In this document: positions 9,791-64,000 of the stretch, piece after piece
Layout: each line of letters begins with the position of its first letter
Numbering within the stretch: the first letter of the stretch is position 1
Made by a program: the position numbers and the translations under genes
Notes under the pieces: generated by a model
What the model saw: only the letters and a program-made list of their open reading frames with translations
What the model was told of the DNA's origin: nothing
Databases searched by the model: none
Source of the DNA: Thermoanaerobaculia bacterium
GTDB lineage: Bacteria; Acidobacteriota; Thermoanaerobaculia; Multivoradales; JAHEKO01
Direction: 5' to 3'
Assembly: GCA_041567315.1 (NCBI GenBank)
Contig: JBFGCA010000004.1
Span: 20,922 to 84,921, forward strand
DNA length: 64,000 nucleotides

Positions 9791-11224
9791 TCAGGGTTCT
9801 GGCGGCCCCGAGCCGGCCGCGGCCCGGTCGTCGAGCTCTACCCGGATCTGCCGCCAGTGCCCCTGGCGGAAGCGCAGCACCGAGAGCAGACTGCGGCTGG
9901 CGTGACCCAGCACGATGGCGCGCCAGATGTCGGCCGGCTCGAGACCGCGGATGAGGTCGAGGACCGCGCACAGCCCCAACGGCAGGGCGAGCTGCGAGAT
10001 CAGGCTGATCCACAGCGGGCTGCGGGTGTCGCCGGTGCCCTGCAGGGCGCCGGTGTAGCTCAGCGCCAGCACCAGCAGCACCGCCGACAGACTGAGGTGG
10101 GCCAGCAGCTGGCTGCCGAGCGCCACCACCGCCGGGTCCTCGACCCCGAACAGCGCGAACAGCGGCCCGGGAAAGGCGAGGAAGATCAGCCCCACCGGCA
10201 CCGTGATCGCCAGCCCCAGGGTGCCGGTGGCCCGCGGGGTGATCGCCGAGCGCTCCGGCTGGCCGGCTCCGAGGTTCTGCCCGGCGACGGTGGCGGCAGC
10301 CGACATCATGGCGATGCCGGTCCAGGTGACCAGCGAGAAGAGCTGCATGTAGCCGAGGGCGTAGGCGGCCTGGGCCTCGGCGCTCTGACGCAGCGAGCCC
10401 ACGAAACGCACCAGCAGCACCCCGCCCAGGTTCATGGCGATCCCCTGGAAGCCGGTGGGCAGCCCGAAGCGGAAAAGCTGGCCGATGATCTTCCAGTCGG
10501 GGGCCAACCCCATGCCGCGGGTGAAGTGGACCACCAGCCGGCCCGAGGCGAGCAGGCGGAAGGCGTAGAGGCTGACCACGGCCCCGGCCAGCGCGGTGCC
10601 CATCGCCGCTCCTTTGGTCCCGAAGCCGGGGATCGGTCCCAGCCCGCGGATCAGCACCACGTTGCCGACCAGGTTGAGGACGGTGAGCGCCACCCCCAGC
10701 CGCAGCGGCGTGCGGGCGTCGCCGGCCGCCCGCAGGGCGCCGCCCAGCATGAAGAAGTGCAGCATGCCGATGCTGAAGACGAACATGATCCGCAGGTAGG
10801 GGAGCGCCTCGGCCTGGACCGCCGGCGCGGCGCGCACGAAGTCGAGCAGCCGGGGGGCGGCGAGCCAGCCGATCGGCGCGAAGACCAGCAGGGCGAGGGC
10901 GGTCGAGGTCAGGAACGCCTGGTAGACCACCCGGTCGACGTCCTCCGCCCGCCCGGCGCCGGTGAAGCGGGCGACCAGCACCCCCATCCCCGAGTAGAGC
11001 GAGCTGACGAAGACCACCACCACCAGGAAGATCTGCCAGGAGACGCCGATGGCGGCGTTGCCGTCGTAGCCCACGAAGTGGCCGACCATCGCGTGGTCGA
11101 CGATCCCCTGCAGCCCGGCGATCGTGTTCTGCAGCAGGGTGGGCCAGGCGAGCTTCCAGACCGCGGCCGGGATCGGCCCCTCGACGATCGAGCGGTCGAA
11201 GCCGGTGCGTGTCCTGGCCGACAT
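9791..11224 (-). CDS. MATE family efflux transporter (NorM/DinF-like)
   Basis: 477 aa, 12 TM helices. N-terminal WKLAWPTLLQNTIAGLQGIVDHAMVGH motif typical of MATE. Confidence 0.85.
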   Translation of the reverse strand: MSARTRTGFDRSIVEGPIPAAVWKLAWPTLLQNTIAGLQGIVDHAMVGHFVGYDGNAAIGVSWQIFLVVVVFVSSLYSGMGVLVARFTGAGRAEDVDRVVYQAFLTSTALALLVFAPIGWLAAPRLLDFVRAAPAVQAEALPYLRIMFVFSIGMLHFFMLGGALRAAGDARTPLRLGVALTVLNLVGNVVLIRGLGPIPGFGTKGAAMGTALAGAVVSLYAFRLLASGRLVVHFTRGMGLAPDWKIIGQLFRFGLPTGFQGIAMNLGGVLLVRFVGSLRQSAEAQAAYALGYMQLFSLVTWTGIAMMSAAATVAGQNLGAGQPERSAITPRATGTLGLAITVPVGLIFLAFPGPLFALFGVEDPAVVALGSQLLAHLSLSAVLLVLALSYTGALQGTGDTRSPLWISLISQLALPLGLCAVLDLIRGLEPADIWRAIVLGHASRSLLSVLRFRQGHWRQIRVELDDRAAAGSGPPEP

Positions 11225-11993: not shown

Positions 11994-13172
11994 TCAGTCG
12001 AGCAGTCGGTTGAGAAAGGCGAAGAACGCCGGAATGCCGTAGAACAGCACCAGCACATAGAGCACCGCCCACCGCCGCTGCCGCACCGCCAGGGCGGCCA
12101 GCCAGCGGGCGGCCTTGAGCGGCAGGTTGCGGAGCGCCGGCAGCGGGTAGATGACCAGCGTCGCCGTCAGGTTGAACAGCAGGTGGACCAGGGCGATGGT
12201 CAGCCCGGCGCGGGCGTGGACGCCGGCGGTCCCCAGCGAGGCCAGCAGCGCGGTCACCGTGGTGCCGATGTTGGCGCCGACGGTGATCGGGAAGGCGGTC
12301 GCCAGCGACAGGATGCCGGCGCCCGCCATCGGCACCAGCAGCGAGGTGGTGATCGAGCTGGACTGCACCATGACGGTGATGATCGCCCCGACGATGATCG
12401 AGACCAGCGCGTTCTGCCCCAGGGCGCGGCTCAGATAGACCTCGACCCGTGACTGCATGAGCCGGCGCATCAATCGCACGATGACCGCCAGGGCGGCGAA
12501 GATGAGCAGCGCGCTGATCGCGATCAGCACCATGCCCTGGGCGCGGTCGGAGGCCGGGAAAAGACGCTCGGCCAGCGTCTTGGCCGGCGCCACGGCGCTC
12601 TTGAGCCAGGCCTTGAGCGGGCTCTCGTATTCGATCGCCGCCGCCCCCGGCAGCCGGTCGGCGAGCAGCGTCGCCAGCTGTCTCAGGAAGCCGGTCGCCA
12701 TCTCCAGGGGCAGCAGCGTCGCCACCGCGAAGAAGTTGAAGAAGTCGTGGCAGGTGGCCACCGCAAAGGCGCGCTGGAACTCGGCGGGGCGGCCCATGTG
12801 CCCCATCGACACCAGCGAGTTGGTCACCGTGGTGCCGATGTTGGCGCCCATGATCATCGGCACCGCATTGGCCACCGGCAGCGGGTTCTCGGGGGCGGCG
12901 ACCAGCCCGACGATCATCGCCGTGGTGACCGACGAGGACTGGACCAGGGTGGTCGTGAGGATGCCCACCATCAGCCCGATGAACGGACTCGAGGTGGCGG
13001 CGAAGAAGCTGTCCAGCAGCTCTTTGCCGAGCATCTTGAAGCCGTCGCCCAGCCCCTTGACGCCGGTCAGGAAGACGAACAGGAAGGCGACCACCGCCAC
13101 CGCGCGCAGCACGGTGACGAGGGTGCCGTTGTCCCACGCGGCCCAGGCGGTGCTCGGCGCCGTCTTCGAAAT
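11994..13172 (-). CDS. Na+/phosphate cotransporter family protein (NptA-like); start uncertain
   Basis: Two Na/Pi-cotransporter repeat units (LVQSSSVTTAMIVGLV...; MVQSSSITTSLLVPMA...). The ORF track extends it to 14006 by read-through. The best ribosome-binding site (AGGAGGGAG) precedes an in-frame ATT at about 13172. An alternative GTG lies about 60 nt downstream. Confidence 0.75.
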   Translation of the reverse strand: MSKTAPSTAWAAWDNGTLVTVLRAVAVVAFLFVFLTGVKGLGDGFKMLGKELLDSFFAATSSPFIGLMVGILTTTLVQSSSVTTAMIVGLVAAPENPLPVANAVPMIMGANIGTTVTNSLVSMGHMGRPAEFQRAFAVATCHDFFNFFAVATLLPLEMATGFLRQLATLLADRLPGAAAIEYESPLKAWLKSAVAPAKTLAERLFPASDRAQGMVLIAISALLIFAALAVIVRLMRRLMQSRVEVYLSRALGQNALVSIIVGAIITVMVQSSSITTSLLVPMAGAGILSLATAFPITVGANIGTTVTALLASLGTAGVHARAGLTIALVHLLFNLTATLVIYPLPALRNLPLKAARWLAALAVRQRRWAVLYVLVLFYGIPAFFAFLNRLLD

Positions 13173-13231
13173 GGCGCTCCCTCCTGCTGCGGGTCGGTGC
13201 CGGGCGCCGGCCCCGCCGCTCGCGCCTGGCA

Positions 13232-14188
13232 CTAGGATACCCGCTCCGCTGCCGCCGGGCTCGCGGGTGCTCCGAGTCCGGCGCCGGCGCCGGCCCGGCG
13301 TTCCGCCGTCGCGATCCGCCGCAGCAGGGCGTCGGCCAGCCGCCCGGCGGCGGCGGGGGCGTGCCGGAAGAACAGCGAGGGCTCGACCAGCTCGAGCTCG
13401 GTGAAGCGCGGTGCGCCGGCGTCGTCGCGAAGGAAGTCGGCTCTCGCGTAGAGCAGCGGACCGCTGCCGGTGACCTTCTCGGCCAGGGCCACGGCGCGCG
13501 CCGTGAGCTCCAGCTCGGCGGGCTCGGGAGCGACCGGCTCGTCGCTGGCCCCGAAATCGTCCTGCACCCGGTAGTCGCCGGGTGGCGGCAGTTTCCGGAC
13601 CGCGTGGCTGAAGCGGCCGTCTAGGAAGACCAGCGAGCGCTCGCCGGCGGTCTCGACGCTCGCCAGATAGGGCTGGAGCAGCGCGTCCTCCCGCGCCAGC
13701 AGCCGCTCCAGGTGTTGGCTGGCGGCGGCCAGCCCGGCGGCGTCGGCGTCGAAGCGCAGGGTCTCGCGCGAGGTGGCGCCGATCCGCGGCTTGATGAAGC
13801 CCCGCGACCAGCCCCGCTCGGCCATCCACCGGGCCAGCGGCGGCCGGCTGCCGCGGGCCAACCGGACGATCGGCACCACCGGCAGTCCGGCCTCGGCCAG
13901 CCGCTCGAGGTAGCGCTTGTCGGTGTTCCAGCGCACCACCGCCGCCGGGTTGAAGAGCCGGGTGAGCCCGGCGACCCGCTCGGCCCAGTCGACGTAGGCC
14001 TCCCACCGCTCCATGTAGTCCCAGGTGGTGCGGATCAGGCAGGCGTCGAAGGCCCCCCAGTCGACCGCGGGATCGTCCCAGGCCGGCTCGGCGACCTCCA
14101 CCCCGCGCCCGGCGAGCGCTGCCCGCAGCGGCCGATCGTCGACCTCCCAGGCCGGCAGGTCCGAGCAGGTGGCGAGGGCGATGCGCAT
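13232..14188 (-). CDS. ATP-grasp domain protein (RimK / glutathione-synthetase-like ligase)
   Basis: Internal ATG (MRIALATCSDLP) of ORF 13232..14833. ATP-grasp-like layout (pre-ATP-grasp N-domain, then ...GFIKPRIGATSRETLRF...). Confidence 0.7.
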   Translation of the reverse strand: MRIALATCSDLPAWEVDDRPLRAALAGRGVEVAEPAWDDPAVDWGAFDACLIRTTWDYMERWEAYVDWAERVAGLTRLFNPAAVVRWNTDKRYLERLAEAGLPVVPIVRLARGSRPPLARWMAERGWSRGFIKPRIGATSRETLRFDADAAGLAAASQHLERLLAREDALLQPYLASVETAGERSLVFLDGRFSHAVRKLPPPGDYRVQDDFGASDEPVAPEPAELELTARAVALAEKVTGSGPLLYARADFLRDDAGAPRFTELELVEPSLFFRHAPAAAGRLADALLRRIATAERRAGAGAGLGAPASPAAAERVS

Positions 14189-14333
14189 CGGAAGGTGGGA
14201 AACCGGCGACCCAACGACGGCCGGAAGCTTGTGTAGCATAGCCGGCGTAGCGATGGGCTGGTCAGAAGAGCTGGGTAGAGGGCCGGGGGAGCGACGTCGG
14301 CGTCGCGGCACGTCAGGCCGGCCCGGGTGGCTC

Positions 14334-14846
14334 GTGCTGACCGCCCTTCTGGGCTCCCTGCTACTTGCGGCGGGGCCGCGGGGCGAACGGCCCACTCGCC
14401 CGGCCCTCAACCGGCCCGGGGCGTCCAGTTTCGTCGTCGAGATCGACGGGATCGAAGCCGGCTCTTTCCGGACCGTCGAGGGCCTCGGAGCGCGGCTCGA
14501 CGTCGTGCCCTTCGCCGGTGGCGAGGACCTGTTGCTCGAGCGGCTGGGCGAGGCGCTTTTCGCCAGGGTGACCCTGGCAGCCGGCGCGCCGGGACCGCCG
14601 CTCGTCGAGTGGCAGCAGGAGGTGGCCGAAGGCGAAGCCGCGCCCCGTGACGTCGAGCTCGTCATGCGCCTCGAACGCGACACCGCCACCTGGCGCGCCG
14701 GTCCCGTCCCCTTCTGCCGCTGGAAGCTTCCGGCTGCCCGACTCGCCGCCCTCGAAGAGCAGCGGGTCGTCCTCGAAGGTGACGGCCAGACGCCGATCGA
14801 ATGGGCCGCCTGCCCCGGCGCCCTCTGGCCCAAGAACCGGATCTAG
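14334..14846 (+). CDS. Phage tail tube-like protein (T4 gp19 / PF06841 'conserved hypothetical phage tail region protein' family), orphan
   Basis: The translation carries the family signature SFVVEIDGIEAGSFRTVEGLG...ARVTLAAG...VELVMRLERDTATWRAGPVPFCRWKL. Probable GTG start within ORF 14025..14846. An unusual hydrophobic N-terminal segment (VLTALLGSLLLAAGP). Confidence 0.6.
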   Translation: MLTALLGSLLLAAGPRGERPTRPALNRPGASSFVVEIDGIEAGSFRTVEGLGARLDVVPFAGGEDLLLERLGEALFARVTLAAGAPGPPLVEWQQEVAEGEAAPRDVELVMRLERDTATWRAGPVPFCRWKLPAARLAALEEQRVVLEGDGQTPIEWAACPGALWPKNRI

Positions 14847-14855
14847 CGGCCCTTC

Positions 14856-17800
14856 CTAGCCCGTTGGCGGTTCGCCGGAGGGGACGATCACCGGCTGGGC
14901 GTCGGTGGCGCGGACGGCCTGGTTGAAGGCGTCGAGCTCAGTGGCGAAGACGGCGTCGAGGGCGGCGAGCTGGGCGTCGAGCTCGGCCTCGAGGTCGGCG
15001 TAGCGCCGGCGCGTGCCGTCGGTCGGCGGCGCCTCGGCGGCGCCGACGACGCCGAGCAGGGCGAGGAGCTGGTTGTCGAGCCTCGGCGGGAAGTTGAGCA
15101 CGTCCTGCGAGGACTCGGATCGGTTCTGGTGAAGGGCGTCTTCGATGGCGTCGAGCCGCGCGGTCACCGCGGCGGCGGCCGCGCGCACCGGGTCGGCGTC
15201 GGCGGCGGCGGCGGACGGGCCGCCGCCGACGGCCTGGCTGCCGTCGTTGCCGGCCCCGTCGCCGGCCCCGCGCTCGGCGAGGCGGCCGGTCAGGGCCTCG
15301 ACCTGCTGGCGCACGTCACGCAGGCGGCGCAGCGCCCGGTGGCTGGCCGAGAGGCTCGCCCAGATCTCGCGGGCGAGGGCGTACTGGGCCTCGTAGTCCG
15401 CGGGGCTGGTGGCCAGCCGGGGGTCGGCGCGCACTTCGACGCGGTGCCGCCGGCTGTAGTCGCCGGCGGTGAACGCCACCTCGTAGGTGCCGGGCGGCAC
15501 CACCGGACCACGCGCCGAGCCCCAGAGCACGGTGCCGTCGACGAGGTCGGCGTCGGCGAGGCGCAGGTCCCAGACGAAACGGTTGACGCCGCGCTCGGCG
15601 GGGAGCTTGCGGACCGGCAGCGCGTCGGGCGGCAGGAAGCGCTCCCAGGGGCTGGGGGCGCGGCGCTCCTCGCGGAGGCTCGAGAAGCTGCGCAGCACCT
15701 CGCCGGCGCCGCCGAGGATCTCGATCGAGACCTCGAGCTGGCCCTCGGCGGCCCGGGCCGCGGCCTCTTCGCCGAGCAGGTACTGCAGCACCACGCCGAC
15801 CGGCGGGTTCTTGCCGGACGGTTCGCTGCCGCCGAAGAAGCCGCCGCCCCCGAAGCGATGGGCGTCGCGCGGCTGGAACAGATGAACGGCGGCGGCCGCG
15901 GTCGCGTCGTCGAGCTGGCGCAGCGGCGAGAGGTCGTCGAAGATCCAGAACGAGCGCCCCTGGGTGGCGATCACCAGGTCGCCCTCGGCGATCGCAAGGT
16001 CGGTGATCGGGGTGGCCGGCAGGCCCAGCTCGAGGGGCTGCCAGCGGACACCGTCGTCGAACGAGACGTAGAGCCCGAACTCGGTGCCCGCGAAGAGCAG
16101 GCCCTTGCGGCCCGGGTCCTCGCGCACCACCCGCACGAAGTGACCGGCCGGGATGCCGTTGGCGCCGTCGGTCAGCAGCTGCCAGCGGGCGCCGTAGTCG
16201 TCGGTGCGGAAGACGTAGGGCCGGAAGTCGTCGAGCCGGTAGCGGGTCACCGCCAGCAGAGCACGGCCCGGGCCGTGCGGCGACAGCTCGATCGCGTTGA
16301 CCTGCGCCCACTCGGGCATCTGTTTGGGAGTCACGTCTTGCCAGGTGGTGCCGCCGTCGCGCGACAGATGGACCAGCCCGTCGTCCGAGCCCGCCCACAG
16401 CACGCCCGCCTCGCGCGGCGACTCCTCGAACGCGAAGACCGTGCCGTAGACCTCGACCCCGGTGTTGTCGAGGGTGATCGGCCCGCCGGCGTACTCCTGC
16501 TTGGCGGGATCCTTGCGGCTCAGATCGGGGCTGATGGCCTGCCAGCTCTGGCCCTCGTCGGTCGAGCGGTGGACGTACTGCGAGGCGTGGTAGAGCACGT
16601 TCGGATCGTGCGGCGAGATCCGCAGCGGCGCGTTCCACTGGAAGCGGTAGCGCAGGTCGGCCGCCGCCTGCCCGACCGCGAGCTGCGGGTAGACCATGAT
16701 CTCGCGCTCCTGGTCGGTGCGCCGGTCGTGGCGGCCGAGCTGGCCGCCGTAGCAGCCGGCGTAGGTGACGTCGGGATTCCGCGGGTCGACCGCCACGTGG
16801 CCGCTCTCGCAGCCGCCGATGACCCACCAGTGGTGGCGGGCGATCCCGCGGGCCGCCGTGCGGCTGGGGATCGACACGCAGCTGTTGTCCTGCTGGCAGC
16901 CGTAGAGGCGGTAGGGGAACTGCCCGTCGACGGTCAGCCGGTACATCTCGGCGGTGGGCTGGTTGTCCTGCGCCGACCAGGTGGCGCCGCCGTTGTAGCT
17001 GACGTTGGCGCCGCCGTCGTTGCCGTTGATCACGACCTGCGGATCGTCGGGGTGGATCCACAGGTCGTGATGGTCGCCGTGCGGGGCGCGCAGGTATTCG
17101 AAGCTCTTGCCGCCGTCGTGCGAGCGCCACAGCCCGACGTTGAGCACCCAGACGGTCTCGGCGTCCCGAGGGTCGGCGAAGACGTGGGTGTAGTACCAGG
17201 CGCGCTGCCGGAACTCGCGCTCGGCGTTGACCCGGCGGAAGCTCTTGCCGCCGTTGTCGGAGCGGTAGAGGCCGCCCTCCTCGGCCTCGATCAGCGCCCA
17301 CACCCGCTGCGGGCGGGCCGGCGACACCGCCACCCCGATCCGTCCCAGCTCGCCCTGGGGCAGACCGTCGGTGAGCCGCTCCCAGCTGTCGCCGCCGTCG
17401 GTCGAGCGCCACAGGGAGCTGCCCTCGCCGCCGCTGGTGAGCGTCCAGGGTTTGCGCTCCACCCGCCAGGTGGCGGCGTAGAGCACCCGCGGGTTGACCG
17501 GGTCGAGCGCGAGGTCGACGGCGCCGGCGCGATCGGACACGAAGAGCACCTTCTGCCAGCTCCGCCCGCCGTCGGTCGTGCGGAAGACCCCGCGCTCGTC
17601 GTTGGGTCCGAAGATGTGCCCCAGCGCCGCCACCCACGCCCGGTCGGGGTCGGTCGGGTGGACCCGGATGCGTCCGATCTGGCCGGCCTCGCGCAGCCCC
17701 GCGTGCTGCCAGCTCTGGCCGGCGTCGGTCGAGCGGTAGACCCCGTCGCCGGGCGAGACGTTGCCCCGCGGGCAGGCCGAGCCGGTGCCGGCCCAGACGA

Positions 17801-29198: not shown

Positions 29199-30533
29199 TC
29201 AGCCGCCCAGGGTGACGACGAAGGCGGCGATCTTCATCGCGACTCGCATCACCGTTGGGGCGAGGTCCTCGACCGCCTTTGCCGCCTGTTTGAGGCCCTC
29301 AATCGAGAGGTCCAGGAATCCCCGATCGGGCTTTTCCTTGGTGGCCTCAGCGACCACCAGCTCGGCGGTCTTCGCTACTCGCTCGCCGTCCTCGGGTCTT
29401 TGCTCCGCCACCGTCTTGAGGGCCTCCTGTAGCTCGGCTATCAGTGCGGCAAGCCGCTCCTGCTGGTCGGCGGGCAGCATAGGTGCGTTTCGCACGATCT
29501 GGGTCACCCGCTCGAGGCGCGACTTGATGTTGACCGGACCCACGACATTCGACACCTGGATCTTGTCCTTCGACATGTCGACTCCTATCTGTTGCCCCAC
29601 CATGTTGAAGATTACATCGCGCGCCTGCGCCGAATAGCTCCCCTGTGTGCTGCCTTCTTGAATCAGTGCCCTCCGATAGCGGCGGACCTTCTCCTGGTCC
29701 TTCAGCTCGAGATAGTCCTCTTCGAACACGCTGACTTCATGGTTCACGGTCTGGCACAGCTCGTCGAGACGCGCCGCCGAGACCCTTCGAGGCTGGTACT
29801 CGTCGGGTACCCGCGAGTCGAATGCATGGTCGGGGTTGCGGCTCAGGAGGATCGTGGGCAGTAGCGCGGCGCGCACGGCGCCAAGCAGATAGAACTCGCG
29901 CGGTGACAGCTCTTCCACGAACGAGATGCAGAGGCTGGCCCTGGAAACCTGCTGCTCGTACGGGTGCTCGTAGGAGAGGTAGTCCACGCCCGCCGGCACC
30001 ATGATCGGACTGTATTTGAGCGTCTTGAGCTGCTCCTCGAGTCTGGCGCCGCCCCCCTCCGCCAGCGCCGAAGCTCCGATCACCAGGCACTGTCGCTGTC
30101 CCGAAGAGAGCTCGTAGGTCGGTGGGGGCTCGGTGCCTAGATAGGTCTTGAGAATGCGCAGCGCATGTCGGTGATTGCGGACCTCCCGCAACAGTTGACG
30201 GCGTGAGAACCGCCGCTGGAGCAGGGTGTCCGGTATCGAGTCGTCAGGTAGCACGTCCTCGACGAATATCAGAGCCGGCTTTCGGGCACGAACGCAGAGC
30301 GCGATCTCGTAGAGGATGTAGCTCGAGGGCTCGGGGTCTCGATACGGGAGGACCGCGATCATGCCGTCCGTATTGCGAAGATGGCGCTCGGCCTTGGCGG
30401 CGTTGAGATGGTCCTGATCGGCTGGCGGGTCGAGGCTGGGCGTCATGCCCTCGCTGAGCATGAGTTCCTGGAAGAACTCGTTGATGTCGTTGTCCGGTGG
30501 CCGGTAGCTGTGTGAGTAGTAGACGATGTACAT
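29199..30533 (-). CDS. Hypothetical protein on a lower-GC cassette: tandem TIR-like / flavodoxin-fold (SLOG-like) domains plus a C-terminal helical region
   Basis: 444 aa, starting at the ATG MYIVYYSHSY (the track ORF begins 2 codons earlier at a TTG). GC is about 55-63% against about 70% in the flanks. Rare codons (ata, cta, aga, agg). The N-terminal strand-helix pattern (YIVYYSH...DINEFFQEL...ILYEIALCVRARKPALIFVED) repeats in a second unit (CLVIGAS...LCISFVEELSPREFYLLGAVRAALLPTILL). Confidence 0.65.
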   Translation of the reverse strand: MYIVYYSHSYRPPDNDINEFFQELMLSEGMTPSLDPPADQDHLNAAKAERHLRNTDGMIAVLPYRDPEPSSYILYEIALCVRARKPALIFVEDVLPDDSIPDTLLQRRFSRRQLLREVRNHRHALRILKTYLGTEPPPTYELSSGQRQCLVIGASALAEGGGARLEEQLKTLKYSPIMVPAGVDYLSYEHPYEQQVSRASLCISFVEELSPREFYLLGAVRAALLPTILLSRNPDHAFDSRVPDEYQPRRVSAARLDELCQTVNHEVSVFEEDYLELKDQEKVRRYRRALIQEGSTQGSYSAQARDVIFNMVGQQIGVDMSKDKIQVSNVVGPVNIKSRLERVTQIVRNAPMLPADQQERLAALIAELQEALKTVAEQRPEDGERVAKTAELVVAEATKEKPDRGFLDLSIEGLKQAAKAVEDLAPTVMRVAMKIAAFVVTLGG

Positions 30534-35533: not shown

Positions 35534-38068
<2,535 letters not shown>

Positions 38069-41129: not shown

Positions 41130-41996
41130 ATGCCGCTTCGGCCGATGGCCTCTGGGACGGTGTCCTTCGGGCTGGTCGCGATTCCGGTGAAGCTGTATAC
41201 GACCGGGGAGAGCGCCAGCACGGTGCGCTTCAGCATGGTCCACCGCGACTGCGGGACGCGGGTCAAGTACCGCTACTACTGCCCGACCGACGACAAGCTG
41301 GTCGAGCGCGACGAGCTGGCCAAGGGCTACGAGTTCGCCAAGAACCAGTACGTGCTGTTCGACGACGACGAGCTCAAGGCGCTGCAGCCGGAGCCCACCA
41401 ACGCCATCGAGATCAGCGAGTTCATCCCGCTCACCGAGATCGACCCGCTGTTCTTCGACAAGTCCTACTACCTGGGGCCCGACCGCGGCGGCGCCAAGCC
41501 CTACCGGCTGCTGGCCGAGACCATGAAGCAGACCGGCCGCGCGGCGCTCGCCAAGTACGCCGCCCGCGGCAAGAACTACCTGGTGCTGCTGCGGCCGTTC
41601 GAGAGCGGGCTGGTGATGCAGCAGCTGCGCTACGCCGACGAGGTGCGGCCCTTCGCCGAGGTGCCGATCGACGACGCGGAGGTTAGCGAGGGGGAGCTCA
41701 AGCTGGCCCGCCAGCTCGTCGAGCAGAGCGCTACCGAGTCGTTCGACGCCGGCGCCTACGAGGACGAGGTCCGCAAGCAGGTGTGGGCGATGGTCGAGCG
41801 CAAGATCCAGGGCGAGGAGATCGTGGCGGCGCCGGAGGAGGCGCCCAAGGCGCAGATCATCGATCTGATGGAGGCCCTCAAAGCCAGTCTCGGCGAGGGC
41901 GGCGAGAGCAAGACGGCGCGCAAGCCGCCGCGGCGGGCCGCGGGTCGCGGCAGCGGCGGCAAGAAGGCGGCGGCCAAGCGGGCGCGCGCCAAATAA
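41130..41996 (+). CDS. ku: NHEJ DNA end-binding protein Ku
   Basis: 288 aa. Ku core (SGTVSFGLVAIPVKLYTTGE...) plus a basic lysine-rich C-terminal tail. Confidence 0.9.
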   Translation: MPLRPMASGTVSFGLVAIPVKLYTTGESASTVRFSMVHRDCGTRVKYRYYCPTDDKLVERDELAKGYEFAKNQYVLFDDDELKALQPEPTNAIEISEFIPLTEIDPLFFDKSYYLGPDRGGAKPYRLLAETMKQTGRAALAKYAARGKNYLVLLRPFESGLVMQQLRYADEVRPFAEVPIDDAEVSEGELKLARQLVEQSATESFDAGAYEDEVRKQVWAMVERKIQGEEIVAAPEEAPKAQIIDLMEALKASLGEGGESKTARKPPRRAAGRGSGGKKAAAKRARAK

Positions 41997-56960: not shown

Positions 56961-57155
56961 ATGTTCGGAAAGAAATCAGTCAAGCTCGAGGCGGAGCTGG
57001 TGGCCAAGGTCAAGCGCTACGCCGACATCGCCGGCTACTCGTCGGTCGAGGAGTTCATCACCCACGCCCTCGACAAGGAGCTGGCCAAGCTGGAGGACGC
57101 GGACTCCGAGGAGGAGATCCGCAAGCGGCTGCAGGGGCTGGGCTACATCTCGTAG
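56961..57155 (+). CDS. Small ribbon-helix-helix (CopG/Arc-like) protein
   Basis: 64 aa, MFGKKSVKLEAELVAKVKRYADIAGYSSVEEFITHALDKELAKL. Beta-strand then two helices. GGAGACGACA ribosome-binding-site-like sequence upstream. Confidence 0.5.
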   Translation: MFGKKSVKLEAELVAKVKRYADIAGYSSVEEFITHALDKELAKLEDADSEEEIRKRLQGLGYIS

Positions 57156-62500: not shown

Positions 62501-63709
62501 GTGGTCCACCGCGCCATCCCGCAGCACACCGTCGCCGGGGCCGACCAGGGCTTCGAGGCCCTCGGTCTGAGCGCGCCGGTGCTGGACTGCCTGCGCCGCC
62601 TCGGCTTCGAGCGTCCGACCCCGATCCAGGCCGCGGTGCTGCCGCCGGCGCTGGCCGGCCGTGACCTGGTGGGGCTGGCCGAGACCGGCTCGGGCAAGAC
62701 CGCCGCCTTTGGCCTGCCGGTGGTCGAGAGCCTGGCCCGGCGGCCCGGGACCCACGCGCTGATCCTGTCGCCGACGCGTGAGATCGCGCTCCAGAGCCTG
62801 GCCTTCGTCGAGGTCGTCGGCGCCGCCCACGGGCTCGAGACGGTGTGCGTGATCGGCGGCGTCCGCTTCAAGCCCCAGATCGACGGCCTGCGCCGCGGCG
62901 TCGAGCTGGTGCTCGCCACCCCGGGGCGGCTGCTGGACCACCTGCGCCGCGGCAACGCCCGCTTCGACCGGGTGCGCGAGGTGGTGATCGACGAGGCCGA
63001 CCACATGCTCGACCTCGGCTTCCTGCCCCAGATCAACGCCGTCTTCGAGGCGCTGCCGGCCGAGCGGCGGACGATGATGTTCTCGGCCACCATGCCCGAC
63101 GGAGTGGCGCGGCTGGCGGCGCGCTTCCTTCGCGACCCGGTGCGGGTCGACCTGCGCCCCGAGGGCCGGGTGGCGGAGGGCATCCGTCATCGCCTCTACC
63201 TGGTCGACCGCGACGACAAGAAGCCGTGTCTGCTCGCGCTCGCCCGCGGCGAGCCCGGCAGCATGCTGGTCTTCATGCGCCGCAAGGTGGACGCCGAGTG
63301 GGCCTGCCGCCAGCTCGAGCTGGAGGGCCATCCGGTGGAGCGCATCCACTCCGACCGCACCCAGGGGCAGCGGGTGCGGGCGCTCGACGGTTTCCGCGAG
63401 GGCGAGCACCGCATCCTGGTGGCGACCGACATCGCCGCCCGCGGCCTCGACATCCCGCGCATCCGGCACATCGTCAACTTCGACCTGCCGGCCACCGTCG
63501 AGGACTACGTCCACCGCGCCGGCCGCACCGCCCGCGGCAAGGCCGAGGGGCTGGTCTCCACCATCGCCACCTGGCGCGACAAGTCGATGGTGCGCGACAT
63601 CGAGCTGGCTCTCGGTGAGAAGCTGGAGCGCTCGACCGCCCCCGGCGTCGAGCCCTACGTCGAGCTCAACCGTGGCCCACGCCGCCGCATCCGGCGCCGG
63701 CTGCTGTAG
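62501..63709 (+). CDS. DEAD-box ATP-dependent RNA helicase
   Basis: Motifs AETGSGKT, PTRELA-like, DEAD (VIDEADHML), SAT and HRAGRTAR. GTG start. Confidence 0.9.
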   Translation: MVHRAIPQHTVAGADQGFEALGLSAPVLDCLRRLGFERPTPIQAAVLPPALAGRDLVGLAETGSGKTAAFGLPVVESLARRPGTHALILSPTREIALQSLAFVEVVGAAHGLETVCVIGGVRFKPQIDGLRRGVELVLATPGRLLDHLRRGNARFDRVREVVIDEADHMLDLGFLPQINAVFEALPAERRTMMFSATMPDGVARLAARFLRDPVRVDLRPEGRVAEGIRHRLYLVDRDDKKPCLLALARGEPGSMLVFMRRKVDAEWACRQLELEGHPVERIHSDRTQGQRVRALDGFREGEHRILVATDIAARGLDIPRIRHIVNFDLPATVEDYVHRAGRTARGKAEGLVSTIATWRDKSMVRDIELALGEKLERSTAPGVEPYVELNRGPRRRIRRRLL

Positions 63710-63738: not shown

Positions 63739-64000
63739 GTGAGCGACCCCGAGCTGCTGATCGACGGGCCGCCGCGGGCGCCGCTCACCCTGCTGCTGGC
63801 GCACGGCGCCGGGGCCGGCATGGAGACCCCGTTCATGGCCGCGATGGCGGCCGGCGTCGCCGCCGCTGGCTTCCGGGTGGCCCGCTTCGAGTTCCCCTAC
63901 ATGCGGCGGCGCCGCCAGACCGGCAAGCGGGGCGCCCCCGACCGCCGACCGGTGCTGGAGCAGGCCTTCCGCGACGCCGTGGCCGCCGCCGGCGATCCCG
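63739..64000 (+). CDS. Alpha/beta-hydrolase-fold protein (3'-partial at window end)
   Basis: GTG start. LTLLLAHGAGAGMETPFM dienelactone-hydrolase/KANL3-like N-terminus. Runs off the window. Confidence 0.45.
   Translation, partial: MSDPELLIDGPPRAPLTLLLAHGAGAGMETPFMAAMAAGVAAAGFRVARFEFPYMRRRRQTGKRGAPDRRPVLEQAFRDAVAAAGDP

Follow-up and report, generated by a model that had tools for sequence, protein, structure and literature searches.

An orphan tube-like gene with a hydrophobic N-terminal segment in a Thermoanaerobaculia bacterium

The stretch of DNA analysed here, referred to as the window (64 kb; G+C content 72.6%), carries on its plus strand at 14334..14846 an open reading frame that encodes a tube-like protein of 170 amino acids. 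Translation starts at a GTG codon (14334) and ends at a TAG stop codon (14844-14846), within a frame that is open from 14025 to this stop. The ORF had been proposed in a preliminary description of the locus, and we find it as described there: the product initiated at GTG 14334 contains VLTALLGSLLLAAGP, SFVVEIDGIEAGSFRTVEGLG, ARVTLAAG and WRAGPVPFCRWKL. Judged by hydropathy and alignment, its N-terminal segment MLTALLGSLLLAAGP (14334..14378) may represent the h-region of a signal peptide or a signal anchor. A Pro/Arg-rich linker, RGERPTRPALNRPGASS (14379..14429; pLDDT below 50), leads from this segment to the tube domain (14430..14780; FVVEIDG to VVLEG), for which alignment, AF2 models and Foldseek matches predict a beta-sandwich with one helix and a long beta-hairpin. 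The protein ends with a C-terminal tail, DGQTPIEWAACPGALWPKNRI (14781..14843), which holds the second cysteine and has, like the linker, low pLDDT in the AF2 models.

An in-frame ATG codon at 14253 would extend the product by 27 codons (14253..14333, plus strand; MGWSEELGRGPGERRRRRGTSGRPGWL) and thereby add an Arg-rich, basic n-region. This extension is possible but less likely. Its G+C content by codon position (.74/.78/.70) is non-coding-like, and a codon-usage coding score trained on the long genes of the window prefers the start at 14334. Shine-Dalgarno motifs are rare upstream of the genes in the window and thus are no guide for choosing between GTG 14334 and ATG 14253, and a scan of positions 13900-15100 found no sigma-70-like promoter or terminator consensus. 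The tube domain (measured over 14430-14843) has the coding-like G+C distribution that is usual for this genome (.80/.51/.86). By contrast, GC3 of the gene is only.85 as compared to about.93 in adjacent genes, and its coding score is 18, whereas the full-size flanking genes score between 47 and 470. A gene on the opposite strand was considered in the form of a 533-aa antisense ORF (13232..14833) and rejected, because orthologues of the ATP-grasp protein encoded there have only 287-339 amino acids and because homology and the coding-like G+C pattern both sit in the plus frame.

The identical 170-aa protein (P0001) is encoded in two NCBI MAGs of the uncultured, high-G+C bacterium that bears it (GCA_041609795.1 and GCA_041614715.1) and in seven Logan contigs. 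These nine contigs come from several samples, are 99.5-100% identical and represent one population, and the tube-like gene has 0 SNPs across them. Since, in addition, no orthologue with more than 39% identity is available, purifying selection is not demonstrable from these sequences.

Based on the distribution of start codons, the hydrophobic segment is obligatory. Downstream of GTG 14334, no in-frame ATG, GTG or TTG codon precedes the first residue of the tube domain (F33, 14430), so that MLTALLGSLLLAAGP belongs to any canonical product. A canonical downstream start that removes the segment, which had been put forward as an alternative at the outset, is therefore ruled out. The mean Kyte-Doolittle hydropathy of the segment is 2.2 over 12 residues; equal hydrophobicity is reached by 2.2% of the 32-aa windows that contain no stop codon when this DNA is translated in six frames, a proportion in which real membrane segments are counted. 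The segment aligns with signal peptides of related proteins, and the linker occupies the position of the c-region and the mature N-terminus in those relatives. When translation starts at GTG 14334 an h-region is present, a basic n-region and an AXA site are absent, the best candidate cleavage site is AAG followed by Pro, and basic residues are located after the h-region. Inspection by eye also revealed no Tat signal. Its consensus is S/T-R-R-x-F-L-K at the boundary of the n- and h-regions, while RRRRR occurs only in the doubtful ATG 14253 extension, 8 residues ahead of the h-region and out of an F-L-K context.

The surroundings of the gene are devoid of recognizable injection-system or phage genes. 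The preliminary description had noted that sheath, baseplate, spike and terminase genes are missing within at least 12 kb on either side, and this holds for the whole 64-kb window, which extends 14.3 kb leftward and 49 kb rightward of the gene. None of these families was detected in a Pfam scan of the gene calls of the window (covering all but the ORFs at 56961-57155 [64 aa] and 62501-63709 and the truncated last ORF at 63739-63999). Likewise, in-house HMMs for sheath, Pvc16_N, CIS_tube plus LysM and GPD hub proteins, which had been derived from genuine eCIS loci and verified against Pfam, have no match in the window, and a tube HMM finds a single tube ORF, hence no second tube gene. To the left lie genes for a DcsG-like ATP-grasp protein, a Na/Pi cotransporter, PhoU, MatE, a TPR protein, CopD and AcrB/HlyD. 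The next gene to the right encodes a convergently oriented sortilin/BNR protein and is followed by genes for an amidohydrolase, a chalcone-isomerase-like protein, HtrA, a cupredoxin, a penicillin amidase and M16 peptidases. Farther to the right are genes for a cysteine-synthase-like protein, a TPR protein, a SpoIIE phosphatase, LigD, PBP1, Ku, a MerR-TPR protein, a Ser/Thr kinase and MoaA, and also for PilZ, an M19 dipeptidase, DUF885, a phosphoribosyltransferase, a sulfotransferase, phosphodiesterases and EF-P. In this region, a complete three-domain LigD (phosphoesterase, ligase, primase-polymerase; 35534-38068, minus strand) and Ku (41160-41996, plus strand) form a non-homologous end-joining pair whose genes are 3 kb apart, with that of the PBP1-type penicillin-binding protein in between. 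A 444-aa ORF at 29199-30533 (minus strand) has no Pfam match and a base composition that is atypical of this genome (GC3.80, GC2.40); its coding score is 36, where about 200 would be expected at its length.

The ATP-grasp gene is located at 13232..14188 on the minus strand and starts with ATG at 14188. The divergent arrangement reported for this gene and the tube-like gene is thus accurate, as is the size of the intergenic region they share, which comprises exactly 145 bp up to GTG 14334 (14189..14333). The encoded protein is a DcsG-like ligase (PF27100; NF058666 with 232 bits, which is below the cut-off of 360) with many orthologues of about 58-69% identity in MAGs of Planctomycetota, Acidobacteriota and Myxococcales. 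Its gene and the start of the Na/Pi-cotransporter gene share one base, and the genes for PhoU and MatE follow (11994-14188, minus strand), from which we conclude that the ligase gene heads a leftward operon of its own. For a D-cycloserine-synthetase-like ligase, an operon with a Na/Pi cotransporter is surprising. The contexts of the orthologues vary.

Assignment of the product to the tail-tube (gp19/CIS tube) proteins, as made in the preliminary description, was substantiated by profile comparison. Alignment with hhalign against a 26-sequence tube alignment from which the window protein had been left out gave a probability of 99.2% and an E value of 1.2e-19 over 113 columns. Matches to the curated models of the inner-tube family do not reach the respective cut-offs: PF06841 is matched with E 6.6e-6 and 26.4 bits, just below the gathering score of 28.2, and TIGR02241 with E 1.6e-4 and 21.5 bits as compared to a cut-off of 62.4. 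The match to CIS5_fam amounts to 16 bits (cut-off 260). The alignment with TIGR02241 members nevertheless covers the whole tube domain, with both the first and the C-terminal strand included. The tube-family profile in turn matches the solved structures of All3324, Alg1, Pvc1, Afp1, Pvc5 and Afp5 with E values from 1e-33 to 1e-12. In an exhaustive HMMER (phmmer) search of 1.84 billion cluster representatives, 91 other relatives had E values up to 1e-3, with just two below 1e-10, and their identity to the window protein is at most 39%. A word-indexed protein search returned the identical protein as its sole match. There was no match in PHROGs or PADLOC, which gives no support to reading the protein as part of a phage or a defence system, and the Hcp Pfam family is not matched either. 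Taken on its sequence, the window protein can be regarded as a solid case of homology to the inner-tube proteins of contractile injection systems (CIS; PF06841/TIGR02241).

Conservation within the domain is uneven. The conserved element EVIEYQDGDD, with the consensus E(V/I)(V/I)E(Y/F)Q.G.D, appears as DVVPFAGGED in the window protein. The hairpin motif RKRPGR.K(Y/F).(N/D)ITLKRG, the most conserved one of the family, is absent and ERLGEALFARVTLAAG is found in its place. Both AF2 models are of low confidence (pLDDT 62 and 57; pTM 0.49 and 0.56), and at this low pLDDT the predicted order of secondary-structure elements, strands plus one helix, fits the tube pattern. With either low-confidence model as query, nearly all of the top 35 or so Foldseek matches in the PDB are CIS, phage or Hcp tubes, among them Pvc1, Afp1, Alg and Hcp tubes, with a best E value of 1.4e-3, a probability of 1.0 and a TM score of about 0.5.

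Many of the relatives carry an N-terminal export signal. At least 34 of the 91 have a signal-peptide-like pattern of n- and h-regions, and these are short single-domain proteins. In those examined over their full sequence, a K/R n-region is followed by a hydrophobic core and an AXA-type site (for example, MRLRSLLAGLCLALPAVAALATAQA before AEPK in P0093). The preliminary description had called the hydrophobic N-terminus of the window protein unusual for the family; this needs revision, since a sizeable set of relatives with textbook signal peptides shares it. The phmmer search was repeated with the tube domain only, which excludes a bias arising from the hydrophobic segment of the query. The best four non-self matches (P0003, P0094, P0139 and P0093; 51-63 bits) are all signal-bearing, whereas cytoplasmic tubes of the MPNRR..DHIGNFNF type score at most 50 bits, which is a modest margin. 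In a neighbor-joining tree calculated without bootstrap values, the window protein is sister to P0003 in a mostly signal-bearing group and sits on a very long branch; in the same tree, signal-bearing forms make up several deep groups outside the tight cluster of canonical tubes. By sequence, the window tube domain thus appears closer, by that modest margin, to signal-bearing members than to cytoplasmic CIS tubes. In the literature searched we found no papers that describe signal-bearing tube homologs. The cysteine in the tail of the window protein (AACPG; 14781-14843) shares a column of alignment A1 with the C-terminal cysteine of P0005, P0026 and P0049, which are signal-bearing and have two cysteines each. 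A disulfide that involves this residue may exist and would fit an exported protein. Other architectures also occur among the relatives: signal-bearing tandem double-tube proteins (P0002, P0058, P0080), N-terminal domains of lipoprotein type (LLAGC) joined to a C-terminal tube domain (P0014, P0018, P0062, P0087), a seeming combination of a LysM domain with a tube domain behind it (P0060), and long low-complexity N-terminal regions that precede the tube domain (P0028, P0068, P0069, P0075).

Genes for signal-bearing tubes of five independent lineages have unrelated chromosomal neighbours, and no CIS gene is present within 6-20 kb of loci L010/L021, L014/L103, L016, L089 and L104. In Nannocystaceae, the P0094 gene (L010-L013, L021) adjoins lspA and a gene for a large kinase. 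The P0173/P0139 gene (L014, L103) is located after one for a DUF7133/cytochrome c protein, and that of P0093 (L016-L018) is flanked by HDOD and TPR genes, with smpB and the pantothenate genes close by. The P0003 gene (L104) is divergent from a gene for an ECF sigma factor. For the Akkermansiaceae locus L089 the surroundings were examined with in-house CIS HMMs only. ATP-grasp genes are absent beside these signal-bearing relatives.

At four of these loci the arrangement looks, from the sequences, like a two-gene cassette (L014:10001-10966, L103:7816-8813, L089:2537-3815 and L104:1491-2698), which would represent at least three lineages. The gene directly downstream also begins with a signal peptide in each case. 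In L014, L103 and L089 it encodes a diverged tube-like protein with a weak match to the tube HMM. The second gene of L104 is not matched by this HMM, and its resemblance to tube proteins was recognized by eye from motifs; in L089 and L104 the second protein has an extra C-terminal region. The window, where the single tube ORF detected by the tube HMM is followed by the sortilin/BNR gene, has no second signal-bearing tube-like gene.

Detached tube genes are common in general, also among tubes that have no signal. A genome scan with alignment A3 yielded 80 loci, mostly in Myxococcota MAGs, of which 78 are non-signal. The A3 motifs are missing from the window protein, and the scan consequently recovered mostly canonical tubes and not the window locus. 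Clear eCIS clusters make up 28 of the 78 non-signal loci. The other 50 have no CIS gene in the examined flanks, a number to be read with the reservation that the in-house HMMs may miss divergent sheaths and that some flanks are short. Only Pfam-verified clusters were used, as clustering of neighbours was noisy owing to antisense ORFs. These roughly 50 orphan loci (L034, L039, L041, L044-L050, L053, L055-L059, L061-L063, L065-L071, L074, L078-L091 and L094-L097) encode canonical, signal-free tubes of about 143 amino acids that start with MPNRR.FDHIGNFNF, with the match near position 10001 in most, and have no conserved neighbours. Some MAGs, such as JBBISH01, CAIMEY01 and CANMLD01, contain two of them.

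Among known systems, the domain of the window protein is homologous over the full length to the eCIS tubes Pvc1, Afp1 and Alg1 and to the adaptors Pvc5 and Afp5, which belong to the same predicted fold class and are the top structural matches of the low-confidence models, and it is similar in size to eCIS tubes (about 140 amino acids). In contrast to eCIS tubes, however, it lacks a nearby sheath, baseplate or spike gene as well as the conserved basic hairpin motif, stays below the curated cut-offs, and has an obligatory hydrophobic N-terminus plus linker. T6SS Hcp, T4 gp19 and tubes of the lambda gpV type are members of the same fold superfamily that rank lower in the Foldseek list; they form rings, as we also infer for the window protein. 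They differ from it in that PHROG and Hcp Pfam searches give no sequence match, and in that they are cytoplasmic and are either driven out by a sheath or built along a tape measure, machinery that is absent from the window. The closest sequence relatives are signal-bearing orphan tubes (P0003, P0093, P0094, P0139/P0173 and the L089 pair), which share with the window protein a hydrophobic N-terminus before the tube domain and a context that is neither CIS nor phage. Yet these relatives have a K/R n-region, an AXA site and the RKRPGR..ITLKRG motif; the well-conserved ones among them pass the TIGR02241 cut-off, and several form the two-gene cassette, none of which applies to the window protein.

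Taken together, we give about an even chance to the interpretation that the window ORF encodes a stand-alone, fast-evolved homolog of CIS inner-tube proteins whose nearest kin are the signal-bearing orphan tubes. Counted in its favour are the homology itself, the unavoidable N-terminus, the signal-bearing nature of the closest relatives together with their genomic context, and the CIS-free window. Counted against it are the poor export signal (no basic n-region, no AXA site and a proline after the candidate site), the missed curated cut-offs, the lost key motif, the very long branch, the low coding score of 18 with GC3 at.85 rather than about.93, the lack of an orthologue above 39% identity combined with 0 SNPs across nine contigs, the low pLDDT of the AF2 models (57-62) and the absence of the second cassette gene.

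Several of these points would also be expected of a decaying relic, that is, a former tube gene of signal-bearing or CIS type on which selection has ceased to act. The frame of such a relic could stay open because DNA with 73% G+C contains few stop codons, and long spurious ORFs are common, as illustrated by the 533-aa antisense frame over the same DNA. A low coding score, reduced GC3, scores below the family thresholds, loss of the RKRPGR..K..NITLKRG motif, a degenerate-looking signal, confinement to a single lineage and a long branch all fit this scenario. It is a serious alternative and the strongest one, which we nevertheless consider somewhat unlikely, because the whole domain aligns with no frameshift or stop, the G+C pattern over codon positions is still coding-like, and hydrophobic segment, helix and C-terminal strand have all been kept. 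Moreover, nine contigs from several samples yield the same gene call, which is weak evidence given that they derive from one population.

Still less probable is that the protein is a cytoplasmic spare part. It would then be a regular paralog of the tube or tube adaptor of a CIS whose genes lie in another part of the genome, and its hydrophobic N-terminus would have no relevance. The frequency of detached tube genes (50 of 78 non-signal loci, and two per genome in several MAGs) agrees with this, as does the finding that PF06841 genes are among the most highly expressed ones in marine Myxococcota MAGs, where they were read as eCIS parts (PMC11937823). However, detached cytoplasmic tubes keep the MPNRR..DHIGNFNF start, the RKRPGR motif and a length of about 143 amino acids; the window protein has neither of the two motifs, its hydrophobic segment cannot be avoided, and its nearest relatives are signal-bearing. 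The idea that the tube-like gene and the divergent ATP-grasp gene form a functional pair, in which the ligase modifies the tube-like protein or both genes are co-regulated from the 145 bp between them, draws on their divergent arrangement at this short distance. We regard it as highly improbable. Co-occurrence of the two genes, suggested as a check in the preliminary description, is not observed: the contexts of ATP-grasp orthologues in three other genomes hold no tube-like ORF, and on this genomic context the partnership was rejected. In addition, the ligase orthologues are widespread while the tube-like gene is confined to a single lineage, the ligase gene heads the Na/Pi-cotransporter operon, and signal-bearing relatives of the tube-like protein have no such neighbour. 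Most simply, the adjacency is a coincidence.

For the preferred reading, a stand-alone inner-tube homolog related to signal-bearing orphan tubes, we propose the following scenario. The hydrophobic N-terminus would target the protein to the Sec translocon. Given the poor signal-peptidase site (AAG followed by Pro), it may remain uncleaved and serve as an N-terminal membrane anchor. The tube domain of about 120 residues would then be placed outside the cytoplasm, in the periplasm or the envelope, where it might serve as a binding module or as a scaffold that forms rings or other oligomers, with no need for sheath-driven ejection. Ring formation and an extracytoplasmic role are suggested by the fold, and export, oligomerization and any cellular role of the protein are predictions of this model.

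Going one step further, we tentatively propose an undescribed class of tubes that are exported through Sec and work independently of a sheath; it would have arisen by exaptation of the CIS inner-tube module and would include the window gene as a diverged member. The window gene would be a weak and possibly decaying representative of such a class and is of modest interest alone. The set of signal-bearing orphan tubes with their two-gene cassettes is a more interesting lead than the window copy. The tubes of phage tails, eCIS and T6SS are regarded as cytoplasmic parts that need a sheath or a tape measure. If the proposal is correct, Myxococcota, Verrucomicrobiota and further diderms would export such exapted tubes alone or as a pair, and these would form rings or tubes at the cell surface or within the periplasm. 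Recurrent exported tubes devoid of a machine would mean that the ring module has been reused outside the cytoplasm, where it could function as a scaffold or conduit, or as a ring with a binding or chaperone role.
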